Origin: a virus
IMG/VR virus record: IMGVR_UViG_3300033984_000473
Location: 91,393-155,392 of that record
Direction: 5' to 3' (one strand)
DNA length: 64,000 bases
In this document: piece by piece, positions 28,392 through 64,000 of the stretch
How the letters are laid out: each line of letters starts with the position of its first letter
How positions within the stretch are numbered: position 1 is the stretch's first letter
The notes under the pieces: model-generated
Database searches by the model: none
What the model was told of the DNA's origin: nothing
What the model saw: only the letters and a program-made list of their open reading frames with translations
Translations under genes and position numbers: made by a program

Positions 28392-28395
28392 TGTA

Positions 28396-46358: not shown

Positions 46359-46811
46359 TTACCCAATTATTTCTAAAATTTTATCGATACATGCTGCTTG
46401 TGTGTTGTGCAAAAGAGGTCTAGCTTCTTCTAGTGTTACCCATTTGTAACCATCCATTTCTGGAAAATTACCACGGGCATCTTCCACATCAGAATTACAC
46501 TTCAACTCAACAGCATCCCATTCAATCTTTGAATCAAAGTTTTCTAAACACACAAACGGATATAGTATCTTTCTTTTATGTGTATAGTTTACCGATTGCA
46601 AAGGGTAAACAGTAAACTTATTACTATCTTTTAAATTTAGATTGGTTTCTTCATAGGTTTCCCTAAAAGCACCTTCTAAAAAAGTCTCATTTTCTTCTAC
46701 CTTACCCTTTGGAATGCTGTAAAAATCTTCGGCATGATTTGTTGGATGACAAATCAACAGTTTTTTATCTTTTCTTATGATAAATAAACCAGCTGCTATT
46801 ACCTTTGCCAT
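46359..46811 (-). CDS. Nudix hydrolase
   Basis: Nudix box GKVEENETFLEGAFRETYEETNL. Confidence 0.75.
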   Translation of the reverse strand: MAKVIAAGLFIIRKDKKLLICHPTNHAEDFYSIPKGKVEENETFLEGAFRETYEETNLNLKDSNKFTVYPLQSVNYTHKRKILYPFVCLENFDSKIEWDAVELKCNSDVEDARGNFPEMDGYKWVTLEEARPLLHNTQAACIDKILEIIG

Positions 46812-47753: not shown

Positions 47754-49349
47754 TTAAAATGTTGTAAACTCTCCGTTAATGAAGTTTATGTGTTGTGACC
47801 TTCCATCGTTATGGATAATCACATGTGATTGTAACCATGTGCTGGCCCCTTTATTATACCCAACTCTTAATTTGGTTGATGTTCCAACTGCCAGTGCTCC
47901 GTCTTTTCTTCCTGGACTATGGTAGTGACCTACGATAATCTTTGTGTTTAATTTACGGAACTGTAACAATGAACCACGACTTCCATTCGAACCAATATCG
48001 CCATGTTGTCCTAACTCCCAATCTTTAACCCTATATGTGGCACTTCTACCAAGAGTAATGAACTTAGGGAATTTCTCGTTGATGATACATGGGATAACAC
48101 CTTTTACATTGTAAGGGTCATTACCATATTGTTCTAACAACATATCAGACATTTTCATGTAAAGTCTTGAGTTCTTGTATGTTGGTTGTTTTTTCCAATC
48201 TTCATTCTTTAACCAACGGTCTAAGAAATCATCATGATTACTTCTAACAATCACAACGTTATCGAACTTAGCAAATGCATCCAATCCATCTAACATCAAA
48301 TCAATCTCTTTACCTAAGTCATTGGTTCCAGCAACCTCTTTACCATATTGGATAAAAGGGTCTTTCATTTCATGGTGGCTAATAGAATTTCCATCAAAAA
48401 CGTCATGAAGAATCACGTGTTTTGGTTTTAACGAATCTAACAATCCCATTGTTGAATCCAAAACTTCTTGGTCATGGTGTCCGTAGTGAATATCACCTAG
48501 AACAGCAGCAGCGATAGTGTTTAAACCACTAATACTTCCACCTTCAACTCTATAATATAAATCACTAAAGTTACCAGTTTTATCATCGGCAGTTACCTGT
48601 CTAACAAAGAATGTTTCATCATCTTTTATTTCAACAATAACAAAACCAAACGTGTGGTGAAACTCACCAGTCTTACCAGACTTAGAATCAGTATAGTTTT
48701 TCTTGGTTACTGAACCTGTGGTAAGCATAATCTTAGGTTTGTTACCCTCTAGTACTGGTATCATTTCCATTTGTACCTTTGGACTACCAAAAATAGATGA
48801 ATTAACACCACTTAATGCTTGTAATCCAGTCATAGGGTTAACCGCAGTAGCTTGTATCTTGATATCTGATAGTATAGAAACGTACTTATGTATGTCATGT
48901 CTATTGGCATCTAGGTATTTTACCACTTCATCAGCCCAAAACTCTTCATTTTCTTGTTCATTTGACCATATACTAGTCGGATTCTTATACCTACCAGCAA
49001 TTACATGGACATCTGCATTGATATATTCAGCATAGGCTTCAATATTCTTAAGGAAACCCTTATGTACTGGTGTGTTATTCTGTGCCCAAGTGATGATAAA
49101 TCGTTTTTTAGTACCATCATGTACCTTAGCTTTAGCTTTTACGTACTGTTCTGGTTCGATTTCAGTCTTTTCTTTGAAATTTAATTTTTTAAACCATTTT
49201 CTTACAGTTCTTTCTGAAAGATTAAACTCATTACCTAATTTTATTGCTAATCGTTCAACAGTTAAATTATTTTCTAACCTATTATCATATTCTAATTTAA
49301 AACGTGAAATTATTTCATCGGTTAAATCTTTAAATTTAAATTTACTCAT
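47754..49349 (-). CDS. calcineurin-like metallophosphoesterase with N-terminal HTH-like domain
   Basis: GDIHYGHHD, HDVFDGN, IVRSNHDDF metal-binding motifs; N-terminal LSERTVRKWFKK. Confidence 0.7.
   Translation of the reverse strand: MSKFKFKDLTDEIISRFKLEYDNRLENNLTVERLAIKLGNEFNLSERTVRKWFKKLNFKEKTEIEPEQYVKAKAKVHDGTKKRFIITWAQNNTPVHKGFLKNIEAYAEYINADVHVIAGRYKNPTSIWSNEQENEEFWADEVVKYLDANRHDIHKYVSILSDIKIQATAVNPMTGLQALSGVNSSIFGSPKVQMEMIPVLEGNKPKIMLTTGSVTKKNYTDSKSGKTGEFHHTFGFVIVEIKDDETFFVRQVTADDKTGNFSDLYYRVEGGSISGLNTIAAAVLGDIHYGHHDQEVLDSTMGLLDSLKPKHVILHDVFDGNSISHHEMKDPFIQYGKEVAGTNDLGKEIDLMLDGLDAFAKFDNVVIVRSNHDDFLDRWLKNEDWKKQPTYKNSRLYMKMSDMLLEQYGNDPYNVKGVIPCIINEKFPKFITLGRSATYRVKDWELGQHGDIGSNGSRGSLLQFRKLNTKIIVGHYHSPGRKDGALAVGTSTKLRVGYNKGASTWLQSHVIIHNDGRSQHINFINGEFTTF
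49190..49222. repeat. direct repeat copy 1 (ttaaaccattttcttacNgttctttctga)
   Basis: 31/32 identical to the copy at ~50288-50320; the two copies bracket the endonuclease-like gene. Confidence 0.6.
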
Positions 49350-50508: not shown

Positions 50509-51279
50509 TTACAATTTAGGTATAAGATTTATTAAAAAATCTCTATCACTAGTGAATATAGGTGTTTCTAAGGCTACCCAGTTACGTCTAACAGCAGCTG
50601 CTTCACCACTATAGTCAATATCTGCTACTCTTTTGATAACTACCCCACGTTTATACTTGGTTTTATAGTCATTCCAATTGATACCCTTCTCATTAAACAA
50701 CATTTCCTGTTTATCACTACCAGATTTACCCTCTAATAGTTTGTGTGAAAAGTTAGCAGATGCGGCCATACTAATACTATTTCTAGTACAGTCTTGCTGT
50801 CTGAATATCATAGCGTTAACCATTTCATCAACCGTAGGTACTTGGAATACACGAGCATCAAAGAAAGCTAATTTGTTTAAGCTTTCAGCTAACCCTTCCA
50901 TACCTTGCATCGTTGACCTTAGATGCCTTAACTGGTTGAACTTAGCAGTTGCCAAAGAGGCAGCAATACTTGTCATCTTTTGTACGCTGTAATCAAACCA
51001 CGCACTAGTTTCAAGTGTGTCATAATCGCACAACACCACGCTGATTTCGTCAGATTGTGTGTAAGCAAACTTTGCACCTTGAATGTTCTCACATAAGAAG
51101 ATTGCGGTTGCATCCATGTCATCGCTAAACCCATCATCGAATGGTTTGTTTAAGTTTTTAGTGAATTTAGAAAATCCTTTACCATCAAGTCTAATGATTG
51201 TAATTGTTCTTCTATTCAAAAAAGTTTTGGTTCTGTTTTCGTAGAATTCTTTCATTCTATCACCTAAAGATAAAGTCAT
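50509..51279 (-). CDS. Thg1-like protein (tRNA-His guanylyltransferase family, 3'-5' nucleotidyl transferase)
   Basis: TIIRLDGKGFSKFTK, FAYTQSDEISVVL and GINWNDYKTKYKRGVV align with Thg1 VVRIDGKKFHEFSK, AFGESDEYSF and GINYNN..FKKGS. Confidence 0.7.
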   Translation of the reverse strand: MTLSLGDRMKEFYENRTKTFLNRRTITIIRLDGKGFSKFTKNLNKPFDDGFSDDMDATAIFLCENIQGAKFAYTQSDEISVVLCDYDTLETSAWFDYSVQKMTSIAASLATAKFNQLRHLRSTMQGMEGLAESLNKLAFFDARVFQVPTVDEMVNAMIFRQQDCTRNSISMAASANFSHKLLEGKSGSDKQEMLFNEKGINWNDYKTKYKRGVVIKRVADIDYSGEAAAVRRNWVALETPIFTSDRDFLINLIPKL

Positions 51280-51280
51280 T

Positions 51281-51904
51281 TTATTTTTTGTTTAGTTTAA
51301 GAATGCAAGTAATTGCTATTCTTGGTTTTGTTGTTGAATTTTCGTTTGAATAATGAACCGAGAACTGATTATGTACAACGCAATCACCATACTTCAACTC
51401 TACTGGTGTAAAGTCTTCCATTGGAATTTCTGATGTGTATTGTGACATACCAGTCTTACCAGTTCTTGTTCTTAGATTTGACCCACAATTTTCGTGATTG
51501 ATTATTTCTCGTTTACCATCCCAATCAGCATAAAACATCGTTGAAGTCGAAACATCAACGTCATGCAATGGAATCCAGAAGGTTAGAATGTCATCATCAT
51601 TGTTATCAAAGTAAGCACCATCTTGATGTGGTGCTGTAATCTTGTAATCTGGATGTTTGATAAAATACTGCATGTTAATAACTTCACCATCATAACCCAA
51701 TACATTTTTTATGTATTTGGCTAACTCCATAAACAGGTGATAACCATGGCAGTTCTGGATTTGTTTTACGTCACCATTCTTGGTTCTGAAAACATTTTCG
51801 TCTTTACATTGCAAAGCAATTGTTTCAAAATCTCGACTGAAAAGGTCTAACAATTCTGTATTAAAAGCTTTTTTTAGTATTTCATATCCTTTTTCCATTA
51901 CCAT
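51281..51904 (-). CDS. PhyH-like 2OG-Fe(II) oxygenase
   Basis: APHQDGAYF (HxD) plus downstream His; fold-typical spacing. Confidence 0.6.
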   Translation of the reverse strand: MVMEKGYEILKKAFNTELLDLFSRDFETIALQCKDENVFRTKNGDVKQIQNCHGYHLFMELAKYIKNVLGYDGEVINMQYFIKHPDYKITAPHQDGAYFDNNDDDILTFWIPLHDVDVSTSTMFYADWDGKREIINHENCGSNLRTRTGKTGMSQYTSEIPMEDFTPVELKYGDCVVHNQFSVHYSNENSTTKPRIAITCILKLNKK

Positions 51905-52089
51905 GAGTCATAATCGGTTATATCCTTTTCAATTCCATAGTCTTCAAATCTTACCTTTACGTTAAGACCGATACCAGTATAAGAAATTAGATAAGAAACC
52001 TTACCAAGCTTTCCATGTAAAAAATTTACACTTTCTTCTAGCTTTGCAAGTGTTTCCACTTCTTTTTCGTTTAAGTTAAAGTCAGCCAT
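51898..52089 (-). CDS. small hypothetical protein (63 aa)
   Basis: Short ORF tightly coupled to neighbours. Confidence 0.4.
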   Translation of the reverse strand: MADFNLNEKEVETLAKLEESVNFLHGKLGKVSYLISYTGIGLNVKVRFEDYGIEKDITDYDSW

Positions 52090-53081
52090 TAAAATCTTTC
52101 TTTTTTAAGCCCTTCGTAGCTTGTTTTACTATTGATTGCACTAACAGCTAAACCGATTTGTTTTGCCATGCTAATAACATTTAGTTTATCATTACCAAAG
52201 ATACCATTGTAATCTGTTGGTTTTCTTAATGAATCACTAATAACCAATTCAGTTAGTACTGAATTTTCAATACGAGCCAAAGCTGGTCCAGAACAGATAC
52301 CATGACTGATGATTGCTCTTACACTCTTGGCACCAGCTTCCATAATAACTTCAGCGGCTTTGCAAAGTGTTCCAGCAGTATCAACCATATCATCTAAGAT
52401 GATTACGTTCTTACCACTAACATCACCAATGATAACCATATCATCAATAACGTTGGCTTGTTTACGAGTTTTATCCAACATAACATAATTGATTGAAATG
52501 TCATGGTAGTTAGCCAATTGGTCTTTCATACGTTTAACACGTTTACCAGAACCAGCATCTGGGCCACACAAGATTGTATCTTCATCATATATCGAAGCGA
52601 TGTACGAATCAAAAACATTTTTACCTTCTAAGTGTGTAACTGGGATATTGAAAAACCCTTGAATTTGGTCAGCATGTAAATCAAATGTGATAACACCTGT
52701 TGCTCCACGATGCTCAATCATTTCAACCATAACCTTGGCACCGATAGGTCCACGTGATTGGTCTTTCTTGTCTTGACGAGCGTATGGGAAGTAAGGTAAG
52801 ATTGGAATAATCTCTCTAGCGGCTGCACGTTTGGCGGCATCTATCGCTAGATTTAACTTTATGATTTCATCTGAATTATTAGGGCTAGACAAGATATAAA
52901 CTCGCTTGCCTCTAATTGATGATTCAAAATCCACACATAACTCACCATCAGAAAATTTCTGACTGTTGATTATGTCTAGCTTTACTTTCTCTTTTATCTT
53001 TGAATTGTTATTGATAAAATCAATAACACTATTGGCTAAATCTTCTCTACCATCTAACGCCACTAATACTGAATCATTCAT
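52089..53081 (-). CDS. prs: ribose-phosphate pyrophosphokinase (PRPP synthetase)
   Basis: HADQIQGFF, PYARQDKK and PRPP-binding DDMVDTAGT motifs; start moved to MNDSVLV past the promoter. Confidence 0.9.
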   Translation of the reverse strand: MNDSVLVALDGREDLANSVIDFINNNSKIKEKVKLDIINSQKFSDGELCVDFESSIRGKRVYILSSPNNSDEIIKLNLAIDAAKRAAAREIIPILPYFPYARQDKKDQSRGPIGAKVMVEMIEHRGATGVITFDLHADQIQGFFNIPVTHLEGKNVFDSYIASIYDEDTILCGPDAGSGKRVKRMKDQLANYHDISINYVMLDKTRKQANVIDDMVIIGDVSGKNVIILDDMVDTAGTLCKAAEVIMEAGAKSVRAIISHGICSGPALARIENSVLTELVISDSLRKPTDYNGIFGNDKLNVISMAKQIGLAVSAINSKTSYEGLKKERF

Positions 53082-53098
53082 AGTTATATATTTTTTAA

Positions 53099-53130
53099 CA
53101 AAGGTACATAAAAATTTTTGAATAAACAAA
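53099..53130 (-). promoter_or_regulatory. promoter (-33 TTTG / -7 TACCTTTG) for prs
   Basis: taacaaaggtacataaaaatttttgaataaacaaatg. Confidence 0.6.
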
Positions 53131-53136
53131 TGTTTA

Positions 53137-53310
53137 TTATTCTTTATTACTTTTTCTATTAAATAAATAAATAACACCAGCAATCAAAGATGCCGTTGCC
53201 AAGTATTTCAATACACTAACGAATAAAAATATTCCAAAGAAAATACCTTGTAAGACGAACAATACTAGTAATACTGCTATAAAAATTCCGATTAATTTTA
53301 CTGTTTTCAT
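53137..53310 (-). CDS. small membrane protein
   Basis: Hydrophobic; start trimmed to MKTVK. Confidence 0.4.
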   Translation of the reverse strand: MKTVKLIGIFIAVLLVLFVLQGIFFGIFLFVSVLKYLATASLIAGVIYLFNRKSNKE

Positions 53311-53314
53311 AATT

Positions 53315-53677
53315 TTATTTTGTTTTTTTCCATTCTCTATCATGGAATTTTGTTTTATAAGTACCTAATTCAAAACTTCCACGATACAATATTATATCCA
53401 AAGCCATTGGCAATTCCAAGTATAATTTATCCCATTCAGCTTTTTGTTCATCCGAATACTCTGGCATTTCTTCGGTGTTAAAAGGGTCGAAACCTTCTGG
53501 AACACCATTAAGAATAAGGTCAATCGCCTCATATATGTTATTCTCACCAAATGGTGGAATATTTTCCACACCATCATGACCGACAGCAACAATTTGGTTT
53601 TCGGTGTTTAGCGACCAACGTAAATGCTTGATTAGTTTTACGTGTTCTTCTTTTATTTCTAATTTTAATATACTCAT
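53315..53677 (-). CDS. hypothetical protein (120 aa)
   Basis: ORF in gene train. Confidence 0.5.
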   Translation of the reverse strand: MSILKLEIKEEHVKLIKHLRWSLNTENQIVAVGHDGVENIPPFGENNIYEAIDLILNGVPEGFDPFNTEEMPEYSDEQKAEWDKLYLELPMALDIILYRGSFELGTYKTKFHDREWKKTK

Positions 53678-53955
53678 TACTCTATGATATTTTTTCTTTC
53701 GAAATTAATAATATCACCTAACTTAAATTTGTTGATTGAATCTGTAAATCTAAATGATAAGTTACTACCATCTCTACTTGAAAAGTAATTACCGTCAATT
53801 ACTTCGACAGTATAGATTGACATTTGAGGTAGACTATCATCACCTTGCATTCCAGTGATAACAAATCGTGTTGGAGAATCAACATAATCATTATTTTGAG
53901 TTTTATTACATGATATAAACAAACCTAAAATTAGTATTGCTATTATTTTTTTCAT
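53677..53955 (-). CDS. putative lipoprotein (92 aa)
   Basis: Signal peptide plus ISC lipobox-like. Confidence 0.45.
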   Translation of the reverse strand: MKKIIAILILGLFISCNKTQNNDYVDSPTRFVITGMQGDDSLPQMSIYTVEVIDGNYFSSRDGSNLSFRFTDSINKFKLGDIINFERKNIIE

Positions 53956-54308
53956 TATTTTTTTACTTTAACAGAGTCAAGCAATTGCTGAACTCTTTTG
54001 TTATCTTTTTTCGCTTTAGCAAATTCTTTTGCCGCTCTTTCGTCAATAACTTCACAAATCGCTATTGCTCTTAGATTTACATAGTGCTTACCTTGATATT
54101 CACTTCCTTTCACTACAAACGCAACTGTAACAACTTCGTTTACCATAAAGGTATCCAAGGCATCTACATTGTCGTTAATGAAATCTAATTTTAATTTTTC
54201 TGGGTAAGCTTCATCAGTTTCAATGATAAATTCTATTTTTTTAAATTTATCACCAAATGTTTGTACTTCACCAATGTGTCTAATTGTTCCTTCTACAAAA
54301 TAATGCAT
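53955..54308 (-). CDS. hypothetical protein
   Basis: Start trimmed to MHYFVEG to reduce overlap with the Sir2 gene. Confidence 0.45.
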   Translation of the reverse strand: MHYFVEGTIRHIGEVQTFGDKFKKIEFIIETDEAYPEKLKLDFINDNVDALDTFMVNEVVTVAFVVKGSEYQGKHYVNLRAIAICEVIDERAAKEFAKAKKDNKRVQQLLDSVKVKK

Positions 54309-54309
54309 C

Positions 54310-55062
54310 TTATTTGTCGTTTTTATCGTCTCCGATTGCATGCGTTAATAATCTATTTACTACTTCTGTTACACCTTCAACTGCTGATTTCTTTACGTAC
54401 TCAACCTTAAGCCCATAATTATCTAAATAATGCATCGGCTCTGGGTCGATGTAAATTATTTGACAATCGGTTCTCACATTTTGTAACATATCCAAAGTAT
54501 AACCAATTTGTAAGCTTGTACCAATTATTAATAATATATTGGCATTACGAACTGCTTGATATGCTCTGTCAACATGTTTTGGATATTCACCAAACCATAC
54601 AATATCTGGTCTAAGTTGTGAATCAAATTTATCATCTTTATCACCAATGTTGATGTCGTTGTATCCTATGTCTATTGATTCGCAAACATCAGAAAAAGGA
54701 CCTCGACTACCACCATAACAACCTTTGGCTTTGGTTAATTCACCATGCAAGTGTAATATATTGGTTGAGCCACCTCTTTCATGTAAATCATCAACGTTTT
54801 GAGTTGTGATAGTTACATCATATTCTTCTTCCAAGGAAGCCAACGCTGTGTGAGCAGCATTCGGGTGAACATCTGGTAATTGTCGTCTTCTCTCGTTGTA
54901 GAAGTCCAATACCATAGCTCTATCTTTTTTCCAACCTTCGATAGTTGCTACGTCCTCAACCTTATGGTTATTCCATAGGCCATCTTTGACATCTCTAAAG
55001 GTGAGGATTCCAGATTCTTTGCTGATACCAGCACCACTAAAAATTACAATTTTCTTTTTCAT
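54310..55062 (-). CDS. Sir2-family NAD-dependent deacylase / ADP-ribosyltransferase
   Basis: GAGISKESGILTFRD, QNVDDLHERGGS, IIGTSLQ sirtuin motifs. Confidence 0.85.
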   Translation of the reverse strand: MKKKIVIFSGAGISKESGILTFRDVKDGLWNNHKVEDVATIEGWKKDRAMVLDFYNERRRQLPDVHPNAAHTALASLEEEYDVTITTQNVDDLHERGGSTNILHLHGELTKAKGCYGGSRGPFSDVCESIDIGYNDINIGDKDDKFDSQLRPDIVWFGEYPKHVDRAYQAVRNANILLIIGTSLQIGYTLDMLQNVRTDCQIIYIDPEPMHYLDNYGLKVEYVKKSAVEGVTEVVNRLLTHAIGDDKNDK

Positions 55063-55361
55063 TATCTATTGTTTAATGTTCTTAAACCAGCAAAAAAGAT
55101 TTTGATACCCTTGATTATAATACCTAACCCACCAACATAACCGAAGTTATACCAGAAACCGTTATTGTTTATAGCGTAGATAGCAATGTTATCTGAGAAA
55201 AGACTACAAATGAATGCTGGGAACATAATCATACCATGCCAAACTCCACCCCAAAATCCATAAACTTCTTGATTTGGGTCAAGGAATTGTATATGTGCAA
55301 CATCGGCACATCCAGTTAATAACAACAGCACAAATGCTGCTAAGAATATTTTTGTTTTCAT
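55062..55361 (-). CDS. membrane protein (99 aa)
   Basis: Signal and TM segments. Confidence 0.45.
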   Translation of the reverse strand: MKTKIFLAAFVLLLLTGCADVAHIQFLDPNQEVYGFWGGVWHGMIMFPAFICSLFSDNIAIYAINNNGFWYNFGYVGGLGIIIKGIKIFFAGLRTLNNR

Positions 55362-55567
55362 ATTTTTTTGTTTTTTATTATATCAAATGTTAAGTTATTA
55401 TGTATCTTGATTTGGTCTGACCTATAATGTTTAATATCGCCACCGTCACATAAAACAATGCACCATATATCATTTTCAAATGTTCCACCATTTGTAACAT
55501 AAATAGCATAACCTTCTTTATCTTCTTCAACAATCACAGGTATTGGAGTTTTAAATTCTAACATCAT
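55358..55567 (-). CDS. small hypothetical protein (69 aa)
   Basis: Short ORF. Confidence 0.4.
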   Translation of the reverse strand: MMLEFKTPIPVIVEEDKEGYAIYVTNGGTFENDIWCIVLCDGGDIKHYRSDQIKIHNNLTFDIIKNKKI

Positions 55568-55926
55568 AGTGAATCTTTTATTTTTTTCAAACGAGCTTCA
55601 ACCCGTCTGTTTACTTCTTCTTCAATAACTCTACTAGTACTTAAAGAAACAATCTTTTCCGTGATACCGTTGATTTTATCATCAACATGTCTAATCATGC
55701 TACTTTCAATTTGTTTTAGTCTGAAGTTAACCCTTTCAGTCAACGCTGATTTTGTTTCTTTTGTTATACCTTCTGCGAAGAAATCTAATTCATCGTTTAG
55801 ATACTTGGTTAATATCTCTTTGACTTCACTATTAGATAATAAAACTGTTTCATCTGAAGTAGTTTTAATCTTCATGTTATCAAATTTATTTGAGTTGTAC
55901 GTTAATAAATCACTAATCCTTGCCAT
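55564..55926 (-). CDS. hypothetical protein (120 aa)
   Basis: ORF in gene train. Confidence 0.5.
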   Translation of the reverse strand: MARISDLLTYNSNKFDNMKIKTTSDETVLLSNSEVKEILTKYLNDELDFFAEGITKETKSALTERVNFRLKQIESSMIRHVDDKINGITEKIVSLSTSRVIEEEVNRRVEARLKKIKDSL

Positions 55927-56356
55927 TATAGTTAGCAGTTAATAAATTTAAAACCAAACCCCAATCATTCTCTGGGTCAAATCCAGCTTTGTCCTCAAAC
56001 AAAACGTTCATGTAAGGTTTTTTATCATAACATCCATATCCGTTGGTTTGTGTCGGAACCTCTGGGTTCTCATTCACATACTTGAAATGAATATCATTCT
56101 TTTTGAATAATTCCAAATACTCATCAACCTCGTTAGGGTGTGAACACGTATAAAGGAACATTACAATATCTGGTCGTTTGCTGATAAATTGTAACGTTTC
56201 TATAGCCAAAGGATAAAATTCATCGGGTGTACTACCAACAGTGTAATTAGGTTTAAGAATTGTACCATGAATATCAAAGGCCCAAAATGTTCGGTCCCAG
56301 TTTCTAGTAATTTTGTACTCGAAGTGATTCGTTAGAATCGATTTAGTTATACTCAT
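55913..56356 (-). CDS. hypothetical protein, possibly a degenerate HAD-like fold
   Basis: AFDIHGTI resembles HAD motif I with the second Asp replaced by His. Confidence 0.4.
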   Translation of the reverse strand: MSITKSILTNHFEYKITRNWDRTFWAFDIHGTILKPNYTVGSTPDEFYPLAIETLQFISKRPDIVMFLYTCSHPNEVDEYLELFKKNDIHFKYVNENPEVPTQTNGYGCYDKKPYMNVLFEDKAGFDPENDWGLVLNLLTANYNGKD

Positions 56357-56358
56357 AG

Positions 56359-56538
56359 TTATGTTTCAAAAATGTTTCTAAAATCTAAAATGTTCATTGA
56401 GAAATATGTGTCTTCTACTTTGAAGAACACAGCACTTCCAATATATGTTAGGTTAGTTGGTTGCCATTCTTTGACTACGTTGAGTGGGAACGTTTGTTCA
56501 CCTTCGTTGGCAACGCCTACTTTAACAAGGTCATTCAT
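56359..56538 (-). CDS. small ORF (~59 aa), not in ORF track
   Basis: My translation: MNDLVKVGVANEGEQTFPLNVVKEWQPTNLTYIGSAVFF...; the promoter element at 56569-56602 lies ~30 nt upstream. Confidence 0.4.
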   Translation of the reverse strand: MNDLVKVGVANEGEQTFPLNVVKEWQPTNLTYIGSAVFFKVEDTYFSMNILDFRNIFET

Positions 56539-56568
56539 TAATGCTAAATTTAAAAATTGTTATTTAAC

Positions 56569-56602
56569 AAAGGTACTAATACTTTTGTTAAAAAGCAAGA
56601 GA
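56569..56602 (-). promoter_or_regulatory. promoter (-33 CTTG / -7 TACCTTTG)
   Basis: taacaaaggtactaatacttttgttaaaaagcaag. Confidence 0.55.
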
Positions 56603-56627
56603 AACCTAAAAATTATAGTAAACTGTA

Positions 56628-57077
56628 TTACGGTACATAGTTTACAATCGTAACATACTCACCACGAAGTTCTTCGTCAATGATTGCTTCAATTGTAGCC
56701 CAATCACCACCAGCTAACCCAGCACCAATCTTTGGTAAACCAAATGTTTTACCAGAAAATTTAGCTTTCATCAACTTCAACGCAGAACGCAAAGCATCAT
56801 AGTCTAAATCCATCTGACCACTTCGTCTTCCAGTATAGTCATATTGACCATACAAGTTAACAACTATTGGTTTTGTAGCTTCACTATATGAAATAGTACC
56901 TAGCTTGTTAATATCCCCTTGAACTGTCTTGCAGTCAGCAGCGTAAGCATCTGGGAATTTATGTTTGATTTGCGGGGCAATACCAGCACCCATAGTGTTG
57001 AAACAATTACAACAGTGCCCAATTACTTCGTAGTTTTCGGCATCCTTAACAAGGTCACCATCGATATATCTAATCAT
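56628..57077 (-). CDS. macro-domain protein (ADP-ribose binding or hydrolysing)
   Basis: VIGHCCNCFNTMGAGIA and FGLPKIGAGLAGGDW macro signatures; start trimmed to MIRYIDGD. Confidence 0.8.
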   Translation of the reverse strand: MIRYIDGDLVKDAENYEVIGHCCNCFNTMGAGIAPQIKHKFPDAYAADCKTVQGDINKLGTISYSEATKPIVVNLYGQYDYTGRRSGQMDLDYDALRSALKLMKAKFSGKTFGLPKIGAGLAGGDWATIEAIIDEELRGEYVTIVNYVP

Positions 57078-57591
57078 TTTGTTTAAATTTTTTGTTTGCC
57101 ATTTCAATACTAGCAGCGATTGTGTCAACTAAAGTATTATAAATGATTGGGTTATATAATTCGTTTTCTTTGGCAACAGCTTCCCACATGATGTCTAAAT
57201 AACCCATACGATAAGCATCGTCTGGTCTACCATAAATCATTTTTTGTGGTTCTCTACCTTGCCAGTAACCAAACTCCATATTGGTTGTTAGAGCAATAAG
57301 TTCTCTAGTTCTTGGTATCCAAAATAAGACACAATCAGCTTTTTTAAGACCATTATATTCCCACATAGGAATCCAAGCCTTGTCTTTATCTGATTCAGTC
57401 TTAGAAGTAAATTCTGGGATGATTAAATCACCTTCAAATCCTTGACGTTTAAATTCTTCAATAGCCTCAAAACGCCATGATGTTAAATGAGGTTGATTTC
57501 CTCTTACAGTTGGTCCAGCTAAGAAAACTGAAGGTCTGTTTATCGACCTTACAGTATCTTCTGATTCTTCATATCTATGTACTTGTACCAT
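57070..57591 (-). CDS. nucleoside 2-deoxyribosyltransferase-like (NDT-fold) protein
   Basis: SVFLAGPTVRG and ADCVLFWIP...ALTTNMEFGYWQG. Confidence 0.5.
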   Translation of the reverse strand: MVQVHRYEESEDTVRSINRPSVFLAGPTVRGNQPHLTSWRFEAIEEFKRQGFEGDLIIPEFTSKTESDKDKAWIPMWEYNGLKKADCVLFWIPRTRELIALTTNMEFGYWQGREPQKMIYGRPDDAYRMGYLDIMWEAVAKENELYNPIIYNTLVDTIAASIEMANKKFKQND

Positions 57592-58088
57592 TATGAATTT
57601 TTGTTAAATGTTTCTCTTACTCGCATAATGGCTTCACCTAACCAGTTTTTGCCTTGCCATTTGCTTTTGTCTTCGATGTTTCTGTGGTCAACACCCATTC
57701 CAATACCCCAAATCTTGTCGTATGGACTAGCCTCAACAATTTCTTTGTCATCAGTTTTCATTAACTCAACCTTTAGACTAGGATTTTGTGTGAATTTAGC
57801 CAAGTTACCTTGATAAACAAATTCTCTACACACTTCATTCCATCTGTCTGTGTTAAAGTTTTTAACTGTACGACCCAAAGATTTTTGGTCAACTGGTCTA
57901 GAGGCAGCCATGATAGCATCGTGACTCTCTTGGTCGTTGAATGTCAATGCTTTCATCGCCATCATGTATTGCTCACAGCAATTATATTCGATTCCAGCAA
58001 TGCTGAATTTAGACGAATACCACTGACTGTAGATTCCATTCCAAAAGAATACGAATTCATCAGTTGTTTTTTCGTTTGTATTTTTCAT
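57591..58088 (-). CDS. NADAR (DUF1768 / YbiA-like) family protein
   Basis: FVFFWNG, YNCCEQYMMAMKALTFND, VMYQGNLAKFTQNPSLKVELMKT and DKIWGIG match the NADAR signature. Confidence 0.85.
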   Translation of the reverse strand: MKNTNEKTTDEFVFFWNGIYSQWYSSKFSIAGIEYNCCEQYMMAMKALTFNDQESHDAIMAASRPVDQKSLGRTVKNFNTDRWNEVCREFVYQGNLAKFTQNPSLKVELMKTDDKEIVEASPYDKIWGIGMGVDHRNIEDKSKWQGKNWLGEAIMRVRETFNKNS

Positions 58089-58089
58089 T

Positions 58090-58479
58090 TTAAATAGTTT
58101 TTTTAGTCGTGCTTCTATGAAATTCAATCAATTCCACACTTTTTATTTCTAACCCTTTGGTATATGTGAAAGTTTCAAGTCTTTCTTTTATCATATCCAA
58201 GTGTTCCTGTGTTGGTTCTTCATCAAAGAAAATCACAACACCTTTATTGGTACCACCATCTATATCGTTACCCAACGCTACTGGTCTATACGTACCATTA
58301 TCATCAGCTTCATTTCCGATAACATCATCGAAAAATTCTGCAACAGTTTCATCGATTAATTCGTCACCAACTTCACAATCACCAACGTGACCAGTTAGGT
58401 GTGCACACATTTCTCTTTCAAAGTTTCCAGCGTACTGATTAGTTTCAATCAATACAGCAAATTTAGCTCTCATTCCCAT
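58090..58479 (-). CDS. hypothetical protein (129 aa)
   Basis: ORF in gene train. Confidence 0.5.
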   Translation of the reverse strand: MGMRAKFAVLIETNQYAGNFEREMCAHLTGHVGDCEVGDELIDETVAEFFDDVIGNEADDNGTYRPVALGNDIDGGTNKGVVIFFDEEPTQEHLDMIKERLETFTYTKGLEIKSVELIEFHRSTTKKTI

Positions 58480-59084
58480 TATTCTAAGTTTTTAAGTGCG
58501 TTAGCTTTATGGTTTGCACTAATTTTGTCATACAAACCAGATACAAGACTATAAGTGTATTCAAATAATCTTCGGAATGGGTTATTTAACAACGTACCCA
58601 ACAATGATAAAGGCCAGTATGAAATCCAAGCTACAATCGAAGCTTTATTATCCAATCCTTTCGGCATGATTTTATTTGCGATATCTGATGTAGTTTTAAC
58701 ATCACTACTATAAACACTAATACCAACAAGTCTTAATTTTTCACACAAATTAACGATATAGTTTGGTGCTTTTAATTCATCAACTTTATTAGCCACAGTT
58801 TTAAATTTTCGATATACTGATTTTACAAACTCATTCCATTTTAAGAATGACCATATAACCCCACATATCAAATACCCTACGATAAATAAAACGGTTACGA
58901 GTATGTTGGCGGTCATAAAGGTCCATGCAATACCACCGTAGTTCCAAATTAATAATGCGATAGCTAAACTAAAAGCTGTTGTCGCAGTTCCTTCTGATTG
59001 TAATTCTAGTGATATAATAATCACCAACGCTGCGATAATACTAAACCATAGTATGAATGTCGCACTTGCTAATAATGTTAACAT
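58479..59084 (-). CDS. integral membrane protein (201 aa)
   Basis: Several TM helices. Confidence 0.5.
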   Translation of the reverse strand: MLTLLASATFILWFSIIAALVIIISLELQSEGTATTAFSLAIALLIWNYGGIAWTFMTANILVTVLFIVGYLICGVIWSFLKWNEFVKSVYRKFKTVANKVDELKAPNYIVNLCEKLRLVGISVYSSDVKTTSDIANKIMPKGLDNKASIVAWISYWPLSLLGTLLNNPFRRLFEYTYSLVSGLYDKISANHKANALKNLE

Positions 59085-59096
59085 GTTTTTCTTTTT

Positions 59097-60662
59097 TTAA
59101 ATTGTTATTTTTGCTCTTTCTCTAATTTCTTCGAATGTGTAATCAACAAGGATTTCACCATTTCTAAATACTTCAACCAATTCATCTGTTACTGAATCAA
59201 AGTCAGCATCCATTGATGTAACGGTTCTGTATGTACCATCATCATTCTTAACTAATTTAAGCTTTCCTTGCTTAGATTTTTTGAATGATTTTGTAATGTT
59301 ACCATCAGCATCCATTTCAGTTGGTGACTTAACAATATTTCTTTCTTCACCATTAACAATTGCATAACATGCTTTGGTTGCGAAGTTTTGCGTATCTCTG
59401 TTGATATCTGCTTGTAGCAATTTACCACCCATACCCAACGCTAAGTTCTCTGGAGAGATTTTCAATTCATCTAACATTGCGTAGATTTCTCTGATTGAAT
59501 CCAAATTTACACCATCACCTTGAATAACACGTACTTGTGGTGGCAATACCTTGTAACCTTTTTCATTGGTTGTGTAACCAAATTTATCGAATAAGATGTT
59601 GAAGATTTCTTTTAAAGTCATCAATACATCACCAGAATCTGGGCGTATAACCAATTGATTCCCTGGAGTTGCTGGTCTTGATAAAACCAATTCTTTCAAC
59701 TCAGTTCCCCAATACTCAGAACATGCTCTGAAAATGTTAAATGAATCTGATACACACGCAACCAATCCAGTAGGATAAGTTTTCAATACACGCATCATAA
59801 GTGCTAACTCACCTTCTTCACCGTTTAGGGTCATGATTGAGTGCTCTGTTGCTGGGATTGATAAACCATACACAGTTTCTGTGTTATAAAGGTCACGGAT
59901 TAATTTTGATGCTACTACGGTGTCTGAACCTCTAAAGTTCACCAAGTGAGCAGAACCACCAATCTTAGCTGATTGTACACTTGATACACCACGGAAACCG
60001 AAGTCATTCAATACGAAATCAACAAGGAAGTCGATAAGGCCAGCATCATACGCTGTTCCTTTTACGAATGCGGCAGTAACGATTTTTCTTACTTCTCTAG
60101 AAAGTGAAGCAACGGTAATCGGATACCAAACTTGAAGCAATATTGACTCTAAGAAGTTGGTCAACCATGCACATTCTGGGTCAAGACTTTCAATTACGAA
60201 TAACACATTTTTAGTGTTAACGATAGTTCCTTCTGGAACCGCCTTGATGCTGATAGGTAATTTCCCATCATATTTGTCAACGATGTAATCAAACTTGCTT
60301 CTATCGAATACACCATCACGACCAAAGATACCTAATTCATTACCTAACATATCGTTAGCTTCATCAACTTCTTCTTTTGTAATAGCAATACCCTCTAAGT
60401 ATTGTTTAAGTACAATCTGTAAACCATAGAATACGGTTTCTGAAAATTTACCACCTCTTGATTCCATGTATGAAACCATCTTGGTCATTTCAGAACCATA
60501 GAATTTGTGGTGTGAATATTTGTAACCATCGGAACATAAGACCAAGTTATCTGGCTTAGTGATGATTTTAGTAAGGTATTTTTGCATACCTTCAATACTA
60601 GACCAGTCTTTATTTTGAATGGCTGTCGCTAAATTCGTAGCTAATTGTGTTTGTAAACTCAT
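59097..60662 (-). CDS. nadV: nicotinamide phosphoribosyltransferase (NAMPT / NadV)
   Basis: CSDGYKYSHHKFY, FGFRG, GSDT, SIPATEHS, VIRPDSGD, QGDGV conserved NAMPT motifs; start moved to MSLQT past the promoter. Confidence 0.9.
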   Translation of the reverse strand: MSLQTQLATNLATAIQNKDWSSIEGMQKYLTKIITKPDNLVLCSDGYKYSHHKFYGSEMTKMVSYMESRGGKFSETVFYGLQIVLKQYLEGIAITKEEVDEANDMLGNELGIFGRDGVFDRSKFDYIVDKYDGKLPISIKAVPEGTIVNTKNVLFVIESLDPECAWLTNFLESILLQVWYPITVASLSREVRKIVTAAFVKGTAYDAGLIDFLVDFVLNDFGFRGVSSVQSAKIGGSAHLVNFRGSDTVVASKLIRDLYNTETVYGLSIPATEHSIMTLNGEEGELALMMRVLKTYPTGLVACVSDSFNIFRACSEYWGTELKELVLSRPATPGNQLVIRPDSGDVLMTLKEIFNILFDKFGYTTNEKGYKVLPPQVRVIQGDGVNLDSIREIYAMLDELKISPENLALGMGGKLLQADINRDTQNFATKACYAIVNGEERNIVKSPTEMDADGNITKSFKKSKQGKLKLVKNDDGTYRTVTSMDADFDSVTDELVEVFRNGEILVDYTFEEIRERAKITI

Positions 60663-60691
60663 ATTGTTAAATTTTTTGTTCTTATTTGATA

Positions 60692-60723
60692 CAAAGGTAC
60701 TAAAAGTTTTTTGGATAACCAAA
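60692..60723 (-). promoter_or_regulatory. promoter (-33 TTTG / -7 TACCTTTG) for nadV
   Basis: gatacaaaggtactaaaagttttttggataaccaaat. Confidence 0.6.
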
Positions 60724-60738
60724 TATTATATCGATTAT

Positions 60739-61080
60739 TTATTCATTCGTATTCACGATTAAAACTTTTTTACCTAATTTGTTTGCTTTATTGATACTAT
60801 CTTTAGTACCCTTAGATTCCATATCCCAAAAAGCTACTACTAATTCAGAAGCTTCCACTATCTGGGTATTCCTTAAAAAACCAGCAATTTTGCCATAGGC
60901 TTTCCAATCTGGTTTAAATATAAGAGTTTCAATACCATTTTCTTTGGCATAATCCTCACCCAACGTATCAGCACCAGCGGCACCACCACTTATTATCAAT
61001 GTTATACCTAATGGTTGTAGTGTTTTCTTTACTAATTCATAATCAGTAAAGCCTCGACTACCTATAATAGCTACTTTCAT
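60739..61080 (-). CDS. SLOG-superfamily protein (DUF2493 / YspA-like)
   Basis: IIGSRGF...ISGGAAGADTLGEDYAKENGI...FLRNTQIVEASELVVAFWD. Confidence 0.65.
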   Translation of the reverse strand: MKVAIIGSRGFTDYELVKKTLQPLGITLIISGGAAGADTLGEDYAKENGIETLIFKPDWKAYGKIAGFLRNTQIVEASELVVAFWDMESKGTKDSINKANKLGKKVLIVNTNE

Positions 61081-62576
61081 TAGTAATTACTTAATGTACC
61101 CTTGTTATTTCTAACAATAACACTAGTAGGTTTTAATTCTTTTGGGCTAGTTAACCCCATAGCACCCAAAACTTCACGAATTTCATGAATTACAGCTGTA
61201 TGATAGTTAAAAACACGTACTTTTTTCTCTTCTGGGTTCAACGCACTGATTAAATGCTTGTTTTGAGTAGCAATTCCTACTGGACATGTGTTCATATTAC
61301 ACTCTCTAGCTTGAATACATCCTAAACTAAGCATAAATGCACGTGCTGCGTTAACAATATCAGCACCCAACGCCAATAATTTGATAATATCGAATGAGTT
61401 GCTAGCTTTTCCAGATGCAATAAGAGTAATTTTGTCTCTCAAGTCGTATTGTTTAAGTGTTTTATTAACAAAAATCAACGCATCTACTAGTGGCATACCA
61501 ACATTATTGGTAAAAACTATCGGTGCAGCACCTGTTCCACCCTCTCCACCATCAATTGTGATGAAATCTGGGTATATTTTTAGTTCTTTCATAGTATACA
61601 CCAACGATATGAACTCACTTTCATCACCTAGACATAGTTTTATACCTATAGGTAACCCATCAGATAGGTCTCTAAGCTCACTTATGAACTCTAATAACTC
61701 TTTATGGTTAGTAAATGCACTATGGTATGGGGGACTCATTACATCTACATGTGGTTCTACCCCACGTATGTCAGCAATTTCTTGAGTATTCTTAGATGCT
61801 GGGAGAATACCACCATGACCAGGCTTGGCCCCTTGTGATAATTTTATCTCTACCATCTTGATACTCTTATTATTTAATATAGTATCAAAAAATCTAGGTG
61901 TTGAAAATACACGTCTACCATCAACTGTTCTGCCAGCACCAAAGTAACCAGTTCCAATTTGGAAACATAAATCCCCACCATTCTCTACATGATAAGGACT
62001 AACACCACCTTCACCTGTATTGTGATAGAAGTTACCTAGCTTGGCACCACCATTCAATGCTCGAACAGCAGCATCTGACAAAGCTCCGTAACTCATTGCA
62101 CTAATGTTAAAGATACTAGCCGAATAAGGATGGCGACAGTTTTCACCACCAATCGTTACACGAGGCTCAGCAATCAATGAAATGTCTTTAGGGAACATAG
62201 AATGACCTAAGAACTCGTAACCTTCCTTATACACGTCTAATTGCGTTCCGAAGGGTGTTGTGTTGATTTCACCTTTGGCTTTTTGATAGACATCAGAACG
62301 TTTCTCACGATTGTATGGTGTTCCGTTGGTATCGTGCTCAATAAAGTATTGTTGTATCTTTGAACGTTCCGACTCAAAAACCCATCTAAGTCTTGCAACT
62401 AATGGGTAGTTTTTAAGTAGAGCATGTTTTGTTTGGAATATGTCGTGAATCACAACAATTAACGCAACTAAAAACAAGGTTGCTAATATCCATAAACCTA
62501 AGCTTTGAACTATGTAAGAAATTACACCCAAGGCTATTGTCCAATAAACAAAAAAGATTACGATTTTATCTCTCAT
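61080..62576 (-). CDS. glutamate-synthase-domain (GltS FMN-binding, PF01645-like) oxidoreductase with N-terminal TM anchor
   Basis: GLGCIQARECNMNTCPVGIATQN and GGEGGTGAAP signatures. Confidence 0.75.
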   Translation of the reverse strand: MRDKIVIFFVYWTIALGVISYIVQSLGLWILATLFLVALIVVIHDIFQTKHALLKNYPLVARLRWVFESERSKIQQYFIEHDTNGTPYNREKRSDVYQKAKGEINTTPFGTQLDVYKEGYEFLGHSMFPKDISLIAEPRVTIGGENCRHPYSASIFNISAMSYGALSDAAVRALNGGAKLGNFYHNTGEGGVSPYHVENGGDLCFQIGTGYFGAGRTVDGRRVFSTPRFFDTILNNKSIKMVEIKLSQGAKPGHGGILPASKNTQEIADIRGVEPHVDVMSPPYHSAFTNHKELLEFISELRDLSDGLPIGIKLCLGDESEFISLVYTMKELKIYPDFITIDGGEGGTGAAPIVFTNNVGMPLVDALIFVNKTLKQYDLRDKITLIASGKASNSFDIIKLLALGADIVNAARAFMLSLGCIQARECNMNTCPVGIATQNKHLISALNPEEKKVRVFNYHTAVIHEIREVLGAMGLTSPKELKPTSVIVRNNKGTLSNY

Positions 62577-63580
62577 TAGTATTTGATTAATTTATCAGTC
62601 ACCACTTTTTTCAAGAATGTTTTCATCAACTCAACGTGTTCTGGAACAATCTTATCTTCAACCTTAAAGCCATAGTCAACCTTTGGAATGTGCCCATCAC
62701 CTTGACTTGGTTCTGTTATTACATTTAAGAAATCTTTTAAGTCGAACCAACGAACTTCAGCGATATCGTCAGAAGCTTCTGGACGACCCATTTGGTCCCA
62801 TTCGTATGTCATAAACAATGTTGTCATGATACCAGATTCCTCTTTGGCGTATCTCCAATCTTCAACAGCTTGACTGCAAATATAAGTCATACCCAATGCT
62901 GATAACTTGGTTTCTTCCATCAACTCTCTACGAGCAGCCATTTCCCAGTTTACATCGTCACGGTCAACAAAACCACCAACAAATCTAAAAAGAGTTTCTG
63001 CTGGTTTTCTAGCCAAAAGGATTTGTCCTTCTCTAGCTACAACAACATCAACGGTTGCATAGGTTACTGGTCTTTGTTTTGAGATACCATAGATTATACC
63101 AGCTCTAAAATCTTCACTTTCTTCAACAGTTTGTGCTGCTAAACCTCTGATTTCAGTAGCGTTGTGAGATTCGATTGGTGTAAATTCTTCTACATGGTGT
63201 CTACCATGATAGTGAGGGATAAAAGAATCACGACTACCGTAAATGATAGCTTGTTTCTCTGGAAATATAGTTCTGATAGTGTTATCAAGGTTTGTTGACC
63301 ATTTTTCGTCACTTCTATTATCTTCTAAAGGTAGAACTATAACATTAGGATACGTATTTTGTATCATTTTCTTTCTGGTAGGAAAATCCAAAGGATTTCT
63401 TTTTGTATTCTGGATTCTAGCGATACCTAGAAATACAATAACATTTGAGTGTTTGTTGGTTACATGGTTAAGTAACCCTTTATGACCATCATGTAGATAA
63501 GGCGTTTCAAATCTACCAATAATAATCCCAATTGCTTCCGCTTCGTTTAATTTTTTCATGTTTCTAATTTTATAATACAA
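62576..63580 (-). CDS. nadM: bifunctional NMN adenylyltransferase / Nudix hydrolase (NadM-Nudix, NatV-like)
   Basis: Nucleotidyltransferase GIIIGRFETPYLHDGH (HxGH); C-terminal Nudix box GGFVDRDDVNWEMAARRELMEETKL. Confidence 0.85.
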   Translation of the reverse strand: MYYKIRNMKKLNEAEAIGIIIGRFETPYLHDGHKGLLNHVTNKHSNVIVFLGIARIQNTKRNPLDFPTRKKMIQNTYPNVIVLPLEDNRSDEKWSTNLDNTIRTIFPEKQAIIYGSRDSFIPHYHGRHHVEEFTPIESHNATEIRGLAAQTVEESEDFRAGIIYGISKQRPVTYATVDVVVAREGQILLARKPAETLFRFVGGFVDRDDVNWEMAARRELMEETKLSALGMTYICSQAVEDWRYAKEESGIMTTLFMTYEWDQMGRPEASDDIAEVRWFDLKDFLNVITEPSQGDGHIPKVDYGFKVEDKIVPEHVELMKTFLKKVVTDKLIKY

Positions 63581-63612
63581 AGGTACAAAAAAAATCCCGA
63601 TAAAACAAATTA
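63578..63612 (-). promoter_or_regulatory. promoter for nadM; its -33 lies inside the upstream terminator hairpin
   Basis: aatacaaaggtacaaaaaaaatcccgataaaacaaatt. Confidence 0.55.
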
Positions 63613-63618
63613 TCGGGA
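63588..63618 (-). terminator. rho-independent terminator
   Basis: CCCGATAA-AACAAA-TTATCGGG perfect 8-bp hairpin followed on the minus strand by T8. Confidence 0.65.
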
Positions 63619-63628
63619 AATATTTTTA

Positions 63629-64000
63629 TTAAACTTTGAAACCCATTGATTGTTTCTCTTTTTCAACTTGACTTGAGTAGAATCCTTTGTAAGATTCATT
63701 TATAAGACTCACAGTATCTTCAATACTCCAGTTTTCATCATCCTCAGACATTTCTTTGATGTTGTCAGCCAAGTTGGCAATGAACGCACCAGTAATGTTA
63801 ACCTTCTTTCCATTTATCTTACCATTCAAGGCAGCATAAACTTCTTCTGTTTGCCATTTCTCTGGTAAGTGGATATTACATACCTTGATGATTTGGTTTT
63901 CATCTAAGAAACTGTAATCTAACGTGAAGTTAAATCTTCCAGGTCTTTCAGCCGCTTTATCAACAAGTCCTTTATCATTGGTAGAGGCCAAAAGGCTAAT
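63629..64000 (-). CDS. AAA+ ATPase, C-terminal part (gene continues beyond window)
   Basis: Sensor-2 AAERPGRF motif; no in-window start. Confidence 0.55.
   Translation of the reverse strand: MSLLASTNDKGLVDKAAERPGRFNFTLDYSFLDENQIIKVCNIHLPEKWQTEEVYAALNGKINGKKVNITGAFIANLADNIKEMSEDDENWSIEDTVSLINESYKGFYSSQVEKEKQSMGFKV

Follow-up and report, generated by a model that had tools for sequence, protein, structure and literature searches.

Two pathways for the reconstitution of NAD+ have been described in phages. The first, NAD+ reconstitution pathway 1 (NARP1), is encoded by a common phage operon annotated as 'Prs + NAMPT' that specifies Adps, which pyrophosphorylates ADP-ribose (ADPR), and Namat, which joins the ADPR pyrophosphate (ADPR-PP) to nicotinamide (Osterman et al, 2024); in NARP1-AP it is extended by the Macro phosphatase Adpp. 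The second, NARP2, consists of the Nampt and Nmnat of Vibrio phage KVP40, with its consumption of phosphoribosyl pyrophosphate (PRPP) named as a cost, and no phage with both pathways was found (Osterman et al, 2024). Here we describe a locus in a stretch of viral DNA of 64,000 nucleotides (positions 91,393 to 155,392 of IMG/VR virus record IMGVR_UViG_3300033984_000473; hereafter the window), in which genes for a PRPP synthetase (Prs), a nicotinamide phosphoribosyltransferase (NAMPT) and a bifunctional nicotinamide mononucleotide (NMN) adenylyltransferase/Nudix protein (NMNAT-Nudix, or NadM-Nudix) lie among genes for ADPR-processing proteins between 50.5 and 63.6 kb. We consider it rather probable that the locus is an island for NAD+ salvage and reconstitution, of an expanded NARP2 type, in a jumbo phage that infects Bacteroidota.

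Parts of such an arrangement are known from elsewhere. In bacteria there are dedicated prs-nadV operons, and a recycling of ADPR through ribose phosphate (Rib-P) and PRPP to NAD has been proposed (Rodionov et al, 2008, PMC2330246). A 2026 paper reports conserved 'NAD-salvage islands' of ~10 kb, with NAMPT and NMNAT-Nudix, in Flavobacterium jumbophages of ~390 kb, and the network of Macro, NADAR, SLOG, Nudix and Sir2 proteins in large phages has also been described (including PMC9503650). The main texts on the jumbophage islands make no mention of Prs, of PRPP synthesis or of an ADPR-recycling loop.

The three enzymes at the centre of the locus are encoded as follows.

52089-53081, minus strand: class I ribose-phosphate diphosphokinase (PRPP synthetase), 330 amino acids, from Pfam, NCBIfam and motifs
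59097-60662, minus strand: nicotinamide phosphoribosyltransferase of the Nampt type, from Pfam, NCBIfam, solved structures and a motif
62576-63559, minus strand: bifunctional NMN adenylyltransferase/Nudix protein, from PDB matches, Foldseek and motifs

An earlier note on this DNA, made from the letters alone, had proposed the same three enzymes, and its positions on the minus strand stand except at one end: for NadM the ATG at 63559 is a likelier start than the TTG at 63580 that it had used, because a promoter-like motif (63577-63586) would overlap the TTG, and the protein called there has 327 amino acids. The search with Pfam and other profile hidden Markov models (HMMs) that it suggested as a check did match the expected families, but it is not decisive. 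Family HMMs cannot decide between Prs and Adps, or between Nampt and Namat, because the NARP1-type pair of Shigella phage Sf13, used as a control, passes the NCBIfam cut-offs too (Adps 133.5 bits against 113 for TIGR01251; Namat 464.6 against 405 for NF006629). Only NF002320 separates Prs from Adps, the Sf13 Adps failing it with 104.2 against 297. More telling marks have been described: in Adps the C-terminal alpha11-alpha12 module is gone and the PP loop is remodelled, and the selectivity helix of Namat bears the motif GSx(phi)x(phi)x(phi)TRD, in which there are aromatic residues (PMC13586617, PMC12774641).

By these marks, as well as by score, the window Prs is canonical. It matches Pribosyltran_N (3.9e-29), Pribosyl_synth (1e-15) and Pribosyltran (1.9e-13) in Pfam and lies above the cut-offs of both NCBIfam models (NF002320, 300.8 against 297; TIGR01251, 264.9 against 113). 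Its identity is 42-43% with human PRPS1 and B. subtilis Prs and 27% with Sf13 Adps, and its alignment with E. coli Prs extends over the C-terminal helix. The motifs FSDGE, YARQDKKD and DLHAxQIQGFF are retained, as are DKTRK of the flexible loop and DDMVDTAGT of the ribose-5-phosphate (R5P) loop. The Sf13 Adps, by comparison, is 293 amino acids long, has no C-terminal module, and reads ARYD and DDICDGGRT where the window protein reads ARQD and DDMVDTAGT. Such proteins are rare in phages: about 35 of 50,697 deposited phage records, many of them unannotated fragments, cover at least 80% of the full-length query, and the ~640 Adps-type phage 'Prs' matches are just 23-33% identical to it. Among the matches listed, the closest cellular Prs are housekeeping genes, almost all from Bacteroidota. 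An origin from a host prs-nadV operon was considered and rejected, as there is no NAMPT or NadM gene within 6 kb of prs among the 80 nearest bacterial Prs loci listed.

The window NAMPT was likewise assigned to the Nampt type by sequence. It matches NAMPT_N (2.7e-27) and NAPRTase (2.4e-40) in Pfam, lies above the cut-off of NF006629 (512.9 against 405), and scores 404 bits against solved NAMPT structures, human NAMPT included, versus 215 bits against the Namat of SpbetaL1 (9W5W). Aligned end to end with 2E5B, it retains DFGxRG, SAHLVNF(K/R)G(T/S)DT, IRPDSG and QGDGV. The region of the selectivity helix reads GMGGKLLQADINRD, the same site in Sf13 Namat being GSYTYQYLTRD; neither the window protein nor any of the 56 related NAMPT genes has the Namat motif, and the Nampt-type motif is common to all 56. 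The identity with the NAMPT of Vibrio phages of ~250 kb, presumed from their size and host to be KVP40-like, is just ~37-40%. In seven related loci (L083-L085, L101, L109, L114 and L119) the position of NAMPT is occupied by a NAPRTase-family protein of ~555 amino acids (for example L083:2007-3677), which is ~25% identical to NAMPT and carries GQGGGLRNxLKRD.

The third protein appears to be a divergent member of the NadM-Nudix family, in which the sequence has drifted and the architecture is clear. The Nudix domain is detected by Pfam (NUDIX, 4.9e-15), and the only strong PDB sequence matches are to the NadM-Nudix structures 2QJO and 2QJT, over both domains. In a Foldseek search with an AlphaFold2 (AF2) model (pLDDT 82.9) the six best matches are all NadM-Nudix proteins, aligned over 320-330 columns with E values of 4e-19 to 5e-16, and the next match trails by some ten orders of magnitude. 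The TM-scores are low (0.41-0.45), probably because the two domains are oriented differently relative to each other. Invariant in 37 homologues are H24-x-G-H27, T136..R139 of the second NMNAT motif and R212-E213..E216-E217 of the Nudix REUxEE motif.

Taken together, the motifs argue for a NARP2-type pathway, Nampt plus Nmnat, to which a true Prs has been added. The likeness to NARP2 of KVP40 is that a single phage genome encodes both a Nampt-type phosphoribosyltransferase and a bifunctional NMNAT-Nudix, which would lead from nicotinamide and PRPP through NMN to NAD+ and would be expected to work however NAD+ is cleaved. The difference is that the window adds a canonical Prs, so that PRPP need not be supplied by the host, together with a phosphatase of the HAD fold, Macro, NADAR, Sir2, SLOG and other proteins. 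NARP1 and NARP1-AP resemble the locus in that NAD+ is rebuilt from ADPR and nicotinamide by proteins of PRPS-like and NAPRTase-like folds, with a Macro protein associated, but the window enzymes bear canonical Prs and Nampt signatures. Whereas NARP1 takes ADPR through ADPR-PP to NAD+ in two steps and at the cost of one ATP, the route from the window, from ADPR to AMP and R5P and on through PRPP and NMN to NAD+, would take four steps and two to three ATP. The bacterial prs-nadV(-nadM) genes of the NrtR regulon, found in Bacteroidota too, in Cytophaga hutchinsonii, share with it a dedicated prs linked to nadV and a NadM-Nudix as the NMNAT (PMC2330246); the module in the window differs in being phage-encoded and in having genes for ADPR processing and RNA repair around it. 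A regulator of the NrtR type was not seen in the window, though no search was aimed at one.

The linkage of the three genes is not peculiar to this phage. Scans of viral contigs covered 57 loci starting from NAMPT and 80 starting from Prs; the relatives at the protein level come from viral contigs and from assemblies of huge phages of ~340-376 kb, such as GCA_902726325.1. No match to the 13 kb region was found at the DNA level by megablast against the 50,697 deposited phage records. The window corresponds, in reverse complement, to some 64 kb of a metagenomic contig of 190,845 bp (ENA ERZ27272089, k141_1147203), and proteins identical to its own are found also on contigs of the 0.2-1 Mb size class. 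The following counts are for the 32 loci whose Prs is at least 50% identical to that of the window and whose upstream flank extends over at least 9 kb.

gene of the NAMPT family, within ~10 kb: 31 of 32 Prs loci
147-amino-acid HAD-like gene: 31 of 32
Sir2: 27 of 32
Macro: 24 of 32
NadM-Nudix: at least 23 of 32

The last figure is a lower bound, since NadM lies where the retrieved flank ends. In a second, unrelated viral clade, whose NAMPT and Prs are 41-43% and 31-36% identical to those of the window, NadM, NAMPT, Prs and the HAD-like gene stand side by side in a compact operon that has no other flanking genes in common with the window and is without Sir2, NADAR and SLOG; here too the Prs is canonical (YARQDRKD; C-terminal ...SVSELF). 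The linkage of Prs, NAMPT and NadM-Nudix is thus conserved in a large clade of jumbo phages and recurs in a second clade. The earlier note had called the co-encoded prs unusual. The combination is less unusual than claimed because the bacterial prs-nadV operons were described in 2008 and the island is common in the jumbo-phage clade. Directly upstream of Prs a further gene is found in all 32 loci.

53315-53677, minus strand: conserved protein of 120 amino acids, upstream of Prs, with no Pfam or PHROG match

The surroundings of the trio, described in the earlier note as Sir2, Macro, NADAR, SLOG and a GltS-type protein, were borne out by Pfam matches and form a conserved ADP-ribose/NAD island. 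The proteins that could bear on ADPR, together with the HAD-like protein, are these.

54310-55062, minus strand: sirtuin, CobB-like Sir2 (Pfam SIR2 PF02146, 2.7e-40)
55913-56356, minus strand: small capless phosphatase-like protein of the HAD fold, BT0820 family, 147 amino acids, from Foldseek
56628-57077, minus strand: Macro protein of the TARG1/DarG/Poa1p-like group (Pfam Macro 3.4e-8; DarG macro model 4.9e-10)
57070-57591, minus strand: nucleoside 2-deoxyribosyltransferase (NDT)-like Rossmannoid, Nuc_deoxyri_tr2 (PF15891, 5.2e-9), present in some relatives only
57591-58088, minus strand: NADAR domain protein, of the family of N-glycosidases of ADP-ribose derivatives and de-ADP-ribosylases (PF08719, 2.6e-51)
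60739-61080, minus strand: YAcAr-family SLOG protein (PF10686, 1.2e-14)

Of the accessory genes, the HAD-like one has the tightest linkage to Prs, and this in two phage clades. Its product has no Pfam match and nothing significant in a PDB sequence search; it matches NF046079 (3.8e-5) and phrog_1238 (2.4e-9), and with an AF2 model (pLDDT 87.7) the best Foldseek match is 2OBB (E 5e-6). The HAD motif positions D28, S72, K113 and E121-D122 are invariant, and a histidine takes the place of the second aspartate of motif I (Asp+2; D-x-H-G-T). The Sir2 is by sequence a sirtuin of the canonical type rather than a match to SIR2_2, on which it scores just 0.0065; surveys from the Aravind laboratory tie SIR2_2 to immune NADases. 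Against the CobB-type NCBIfam models it reaches 175-182 bits, under the cut-offs. Among PDB entries the Macro protein is closest to BT1257 (1.6e-12), followed by the SCO6735 type (2.5e-10), DarG (1.2e-6) and OARD1/TARG1 (1.6e-5), and it matches Poa1p (2.7e-6) over the first ~50 residues only; Adpp, the ADPR-1''-P phosphatase associated with NARP1, was assigned to the same Macro group (NARP1-AP). The NADAR protein is above the TIGR02464 cut-off (155 bits against 73.7). In a relative of 338 kb, GCA_902726325.1 (L143:2886-3902), NADAR and Nuc_deoxyri_tr2 are fused in one protein of 338 amino acids, which argues that the adjacent genes at 57070-58088 of the window act together. Only one NDT-fold protein is detectable in the island, where the earlier note had counted two; a second Nuc_deoxyri_tr2 protein lies outside it, as given below. 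The SLOG protein, found in about half of the related islands, is predicted to bind or process nucleotides or ADPR derivatives.

All genes of the island, and nearly every gene across the window, lie on the minus strand, and NadM, NAMPT and Prs each have their own copy of the same promoter-like motif, which was noticed on reading the intergenic regions.

63577-63586, minus strand: promoter-like motif GTACCTTTGT upstream of NadM
60691-60700, minus strand: identical copy before NAMPT
56567-56576, minus strand: identical copy before the block of orf59, HAD and Sir2
53098-53107, minus strand: identical copy before Prs
2081-2090, 12972-12981 and 28395-28404, minus strand: further copies elsewhere in the window

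The consensus of the Bacteroidota promoter at -7 is TAnnTTTG, which GTACCTTTGT fits. The ten bases occur 34 times in the window versus 5.5 expected, 31 of the 34 on the minus (coding) strand, where the copies are mostly in gaps between genes; they probably mark the promoter class of an early-looking region. A scan for sigma-70 promoters was uninformative (81 sites against 77 expected). A Bacteroidota host is suggested because the motif fits the -7 consensus and the closest cellular Prs are almost all from Bacteroidota. The Flavobacterium jumbophages are probably relatives of this phage. The Bacteroidota-type promoter motif, a GC content of ~33% and IF3 are features mentioned for them that the window has too, and an Acb1-like gene, also mentioned for them, lies on the source contig just outside the window.

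The reactions expected of these proteins could be joined into a loop from ADPR through R5P, PRPP and NMN to NAD+, which we infer, together with a role in counter-defence, from analogy with the known enzymes. The Nudix domain would split ADPR into AMP and R5P, Prs would turn the R5P released, with ATP, back into PRPP and AMP, NAMPT would condense PRPP with nicotinamide to NMN, and the NMNAT domain would make NAD+ from NMN and ATP. Both products of NAD+ cleavage, whether by host NADases or by the phage sirtuin, would thereby be recycled, at a net cost of two to three ATP per NAD+ rebuilt, and the PRPP supplied by the phage Prs would lift the drain that makes the two-gene NARP2 costly. Sir2 itself would consume NAD+ on the phage side and yield nicotinamide and O-acyl-ADPR. 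The Macro protein would act on ADPR-1''-P, O-acetyl-ADPR or ADP-ribosylated targets to release free ADPR, and with NADAR, and perhaps the HAD phosphatase, could channel ADPR-1''-P, O-acyl-ADPR and ADP-ribosylated targets into free ADPR. In its fullest form, to which we give less than an even chance and which is offered tentatively, Prs, Nudix, Macro and the BT0820-type HAD protein would turn any NAD+ breakdown product into PRPP, from which NAMPT and NMNAT would rebuild NAD+ while sparing the PRPP of the host. If so, NARP1-like economy would be combined with NARP2-like breadth, and the HAD phosphatase and the 120-amino-acid protein would be new components of the pathway.

Several observations weigh against the expanded NARP2-type reading. 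The NMNAT domain is divergent, its CTP_transf_like match (0.0025) being under the Pfam cut-off, and the best score against the NadM-Nudix equivalog models of NCBIfam is 60.5 bits against a cut-off of 397, though the leading matches, all far under their cut-offs, are without exception bifunctional NadM-Nudix models. Nudix domains of the KVP40 type are said, in work by Lee, Li and Miller from 2017, to hydrolyse NAD+ as well as ADPR, and a futile cycle is possible if the Nudix domain of the window protein does the same. In the window, 6 kb and two promoter units separate Prs from NAMPT. GTACCTTTGT is spread over the whole 64 kb and is not specific to the island; being general to the region, it points to a shared temporal class and not to island-specific control. 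PRPP also feeds nucleotide synthesis, which a phage of 340-376 kb needs in bulk. Finally, 20 of the 39 loci with NAMPT and NadM and with enough flank have no Prs, so that Prs is an addition to NARP2 and not a requirement of it.

Some of these same observations would suit Prs as a gene for general nucleotide supply, its nearness to the NAD genes merely reflecting a shared block of early genes. PRPP is the common precursor of nucleotides, a DHFR gene is close by on the same contig, and the promoter of Prs is its own, in a unit shared with PhyH and Thg1 and not with NAMPT and under a motif that recurs 34 times; the housekeeping character of the closest Bacteroidota prs among the matches listed, with no nadV nearby, would agree. 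We nevertheless regard this as unlikely, since the NAMPT-family gene is within ~10 kb in all but one of the 32 Prs loci of the clade, and an unrelated phage clade places Prs straight after NAMPT and NadM. Bacteria with prs-nadV operons, moreover, keep a second, dedicated prs (PMC2330246), and the annotated parts of the window show no further salvage enzyme that uses PRPP.

It is also conceivable, if rather improbable, that the island is there mainly for the phage's own NAD+ and ADP-ribose biology and to erase signals and adducts, with salvage topping up the NAD+ that the phage spends. Sir2 would then spend NAD+ in modifying targets, while Macro and NADAR would strip ADP-ribose from DNA or protein (left, for example, by DarT-type toxins) or destroy immune signals derived from ADPR. 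NADAR proteins have reportedly, in literature of 2023, been found to reverse the ADP-ribosylation of guanine in DNA. The conservation of a canonical-type sirtuin in the island and the placing of the Macro protein nearest to the DarG/TARG1/SCO6735 group are consistent with such a role, as is the joint occurrence in phages of proteins of the Macro, NADAR, SLOG and Nudix types, for which an action against soluble ADPR derivatives has been proposed (PMC9503650). It would leave unexplained, however, the dedicated Prs and the operon of NadM, NAMPT, Prs and HAD in the second clade, which lacks Sir2, NADAR and SLOG, and it is largely compatible with an expanded NARP2-type island rather than opposed to it.

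That the Prs-like and NAMPT-like genes are instead a split NARP1 is hardly credible and was rejected on motifs, length and scores: phage genes so annotated are mostly Adps and Namat, and the family HMMs fail to tell the pairs apart, but the window Prs keeps the alpha11-alpha12 module, a canonical R5P loop and ARQD, the Namat motif is missing from NAMPT and its 56 relatives, a partner NMNAT is encoded, and a distance of 6 kb and ~15 open reading frames (ORFs) separates the two genes, which have a promoter motif each, whereas 97% of adps genes have namat within ten genes (Osterman et al, 2024).

The expanded NARP2-type island that we favour is a more complete form of a counter-defence pathway described before and not a system of a new kind. 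NARP2 itself, the Macro/NADAR/SLOG/Nudix/Sir2 network of large phages, the prs-nadV link in bacteria and the NAD-salvage islands of jumbophages are already known; a canonical Prs or a HAD phosphatase as a recurrent partner of phage NARP2, and the reading of such a locus as ADPR recycling in a phage, were not found in the literature examined. NARP2 has been described as costly and somewhat toxic through its use of PRPP, and an own Prs suggests how phages may pay for it. A new lead in the NAD+ metabolism of phages comes from the conserved HAD phosphatase, and the module is a concrete one of several enzymes, for which cultured relatives, Flavobacterium jumbophages such as FKo-1 and FTs-1, apparently exist. 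For annotation the comparison with Sf13 carries a warning, in that checks at the level of motifs are needed before a phage is said to have NARP1 or NARP2.

The other features in and around the island are listed here.

50509-51279, minus strand: Thg1-like protein of the tRNA 5'-end repair type (Pfam Thg1 2.5e-30, Thg1C 3e-6)
51281-51898, minus strand: PhyH protein, from Pfam
53955-54308, minus strand: DUF3127 protein, from Pfam
61080-62576, minus strand: membrane-anchored protein with a GltS-type FMN domain (Glu_synthase PF01645, 1e-88, residues 153-475)
63595-63618, minus strand: terminator-like hairpin with a T-run (9-bp stem with 4 GC pairs, tail TTTTTTTT)
38460-40379, minus strand: RNase II/R-like protein (RNB and S1)
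41896-42375, minus strand: short Gp23-like protein
42406-42900, minus strand: homologue of translation initiation factor IF3
47754-49349, minus strand: protein of 531 amino acids with a weak match to calcineurin-like phosphoesterases

The hairpin lies between NadM and an upstream AAA gene and forms the upstream edge of the island, after which the stop and start codons of NadM, GltS and SLOG overlap successively. The GltS-type protein has a hydrophobic N-terminus and no evident tie to NAD chemistry, and is found in few related islands (L009, L027, L037, L038 and L103); PhyH, GltS, SLOG and NDT are patchy across the related islands. Within the window the island genes have no paralogues, and the NAPRTase and Prs families are each represented by one gene only.

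Further from the trio, IF3 and the RNase II/R-like protein are uncommon translation and RNA-turnover genes for a phage, and with the Gp23-like protein, homing endonucleases and one tRNA-Pro they make up a gene content that fits a jumbo phage. The second Nuc_deoxyri_tr2 protein (155 amino acids; 43423-43890, minus strand) and a second, stand-alone NUDIX protein (150 amino acids; 46359-46811, minus strand), both outside the range of the island, sit near tRNA_bind, Smr and GIY-YIG genes. The Thg1-like protein stands outside NAD chemistry, yet its gene shares a promoter unit with Prs and is kept in most related islands. With the 531-amino-acid protein it flanks Prs, both are kept with the island in most relatives, and they may be part of the same counter-defence region. 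Past the high end of the window the source contig (L002:1-437) encodes a 2H-phosphoesterase/Acb1-like protein of the anti-CBASS type, ~9-10 kb upstream of NAMPT, with DHFR and an AAA protein of 450 amino acids as neighbours; the partial ORF at 63629-63991 is the C-terminus of this AAA protein.

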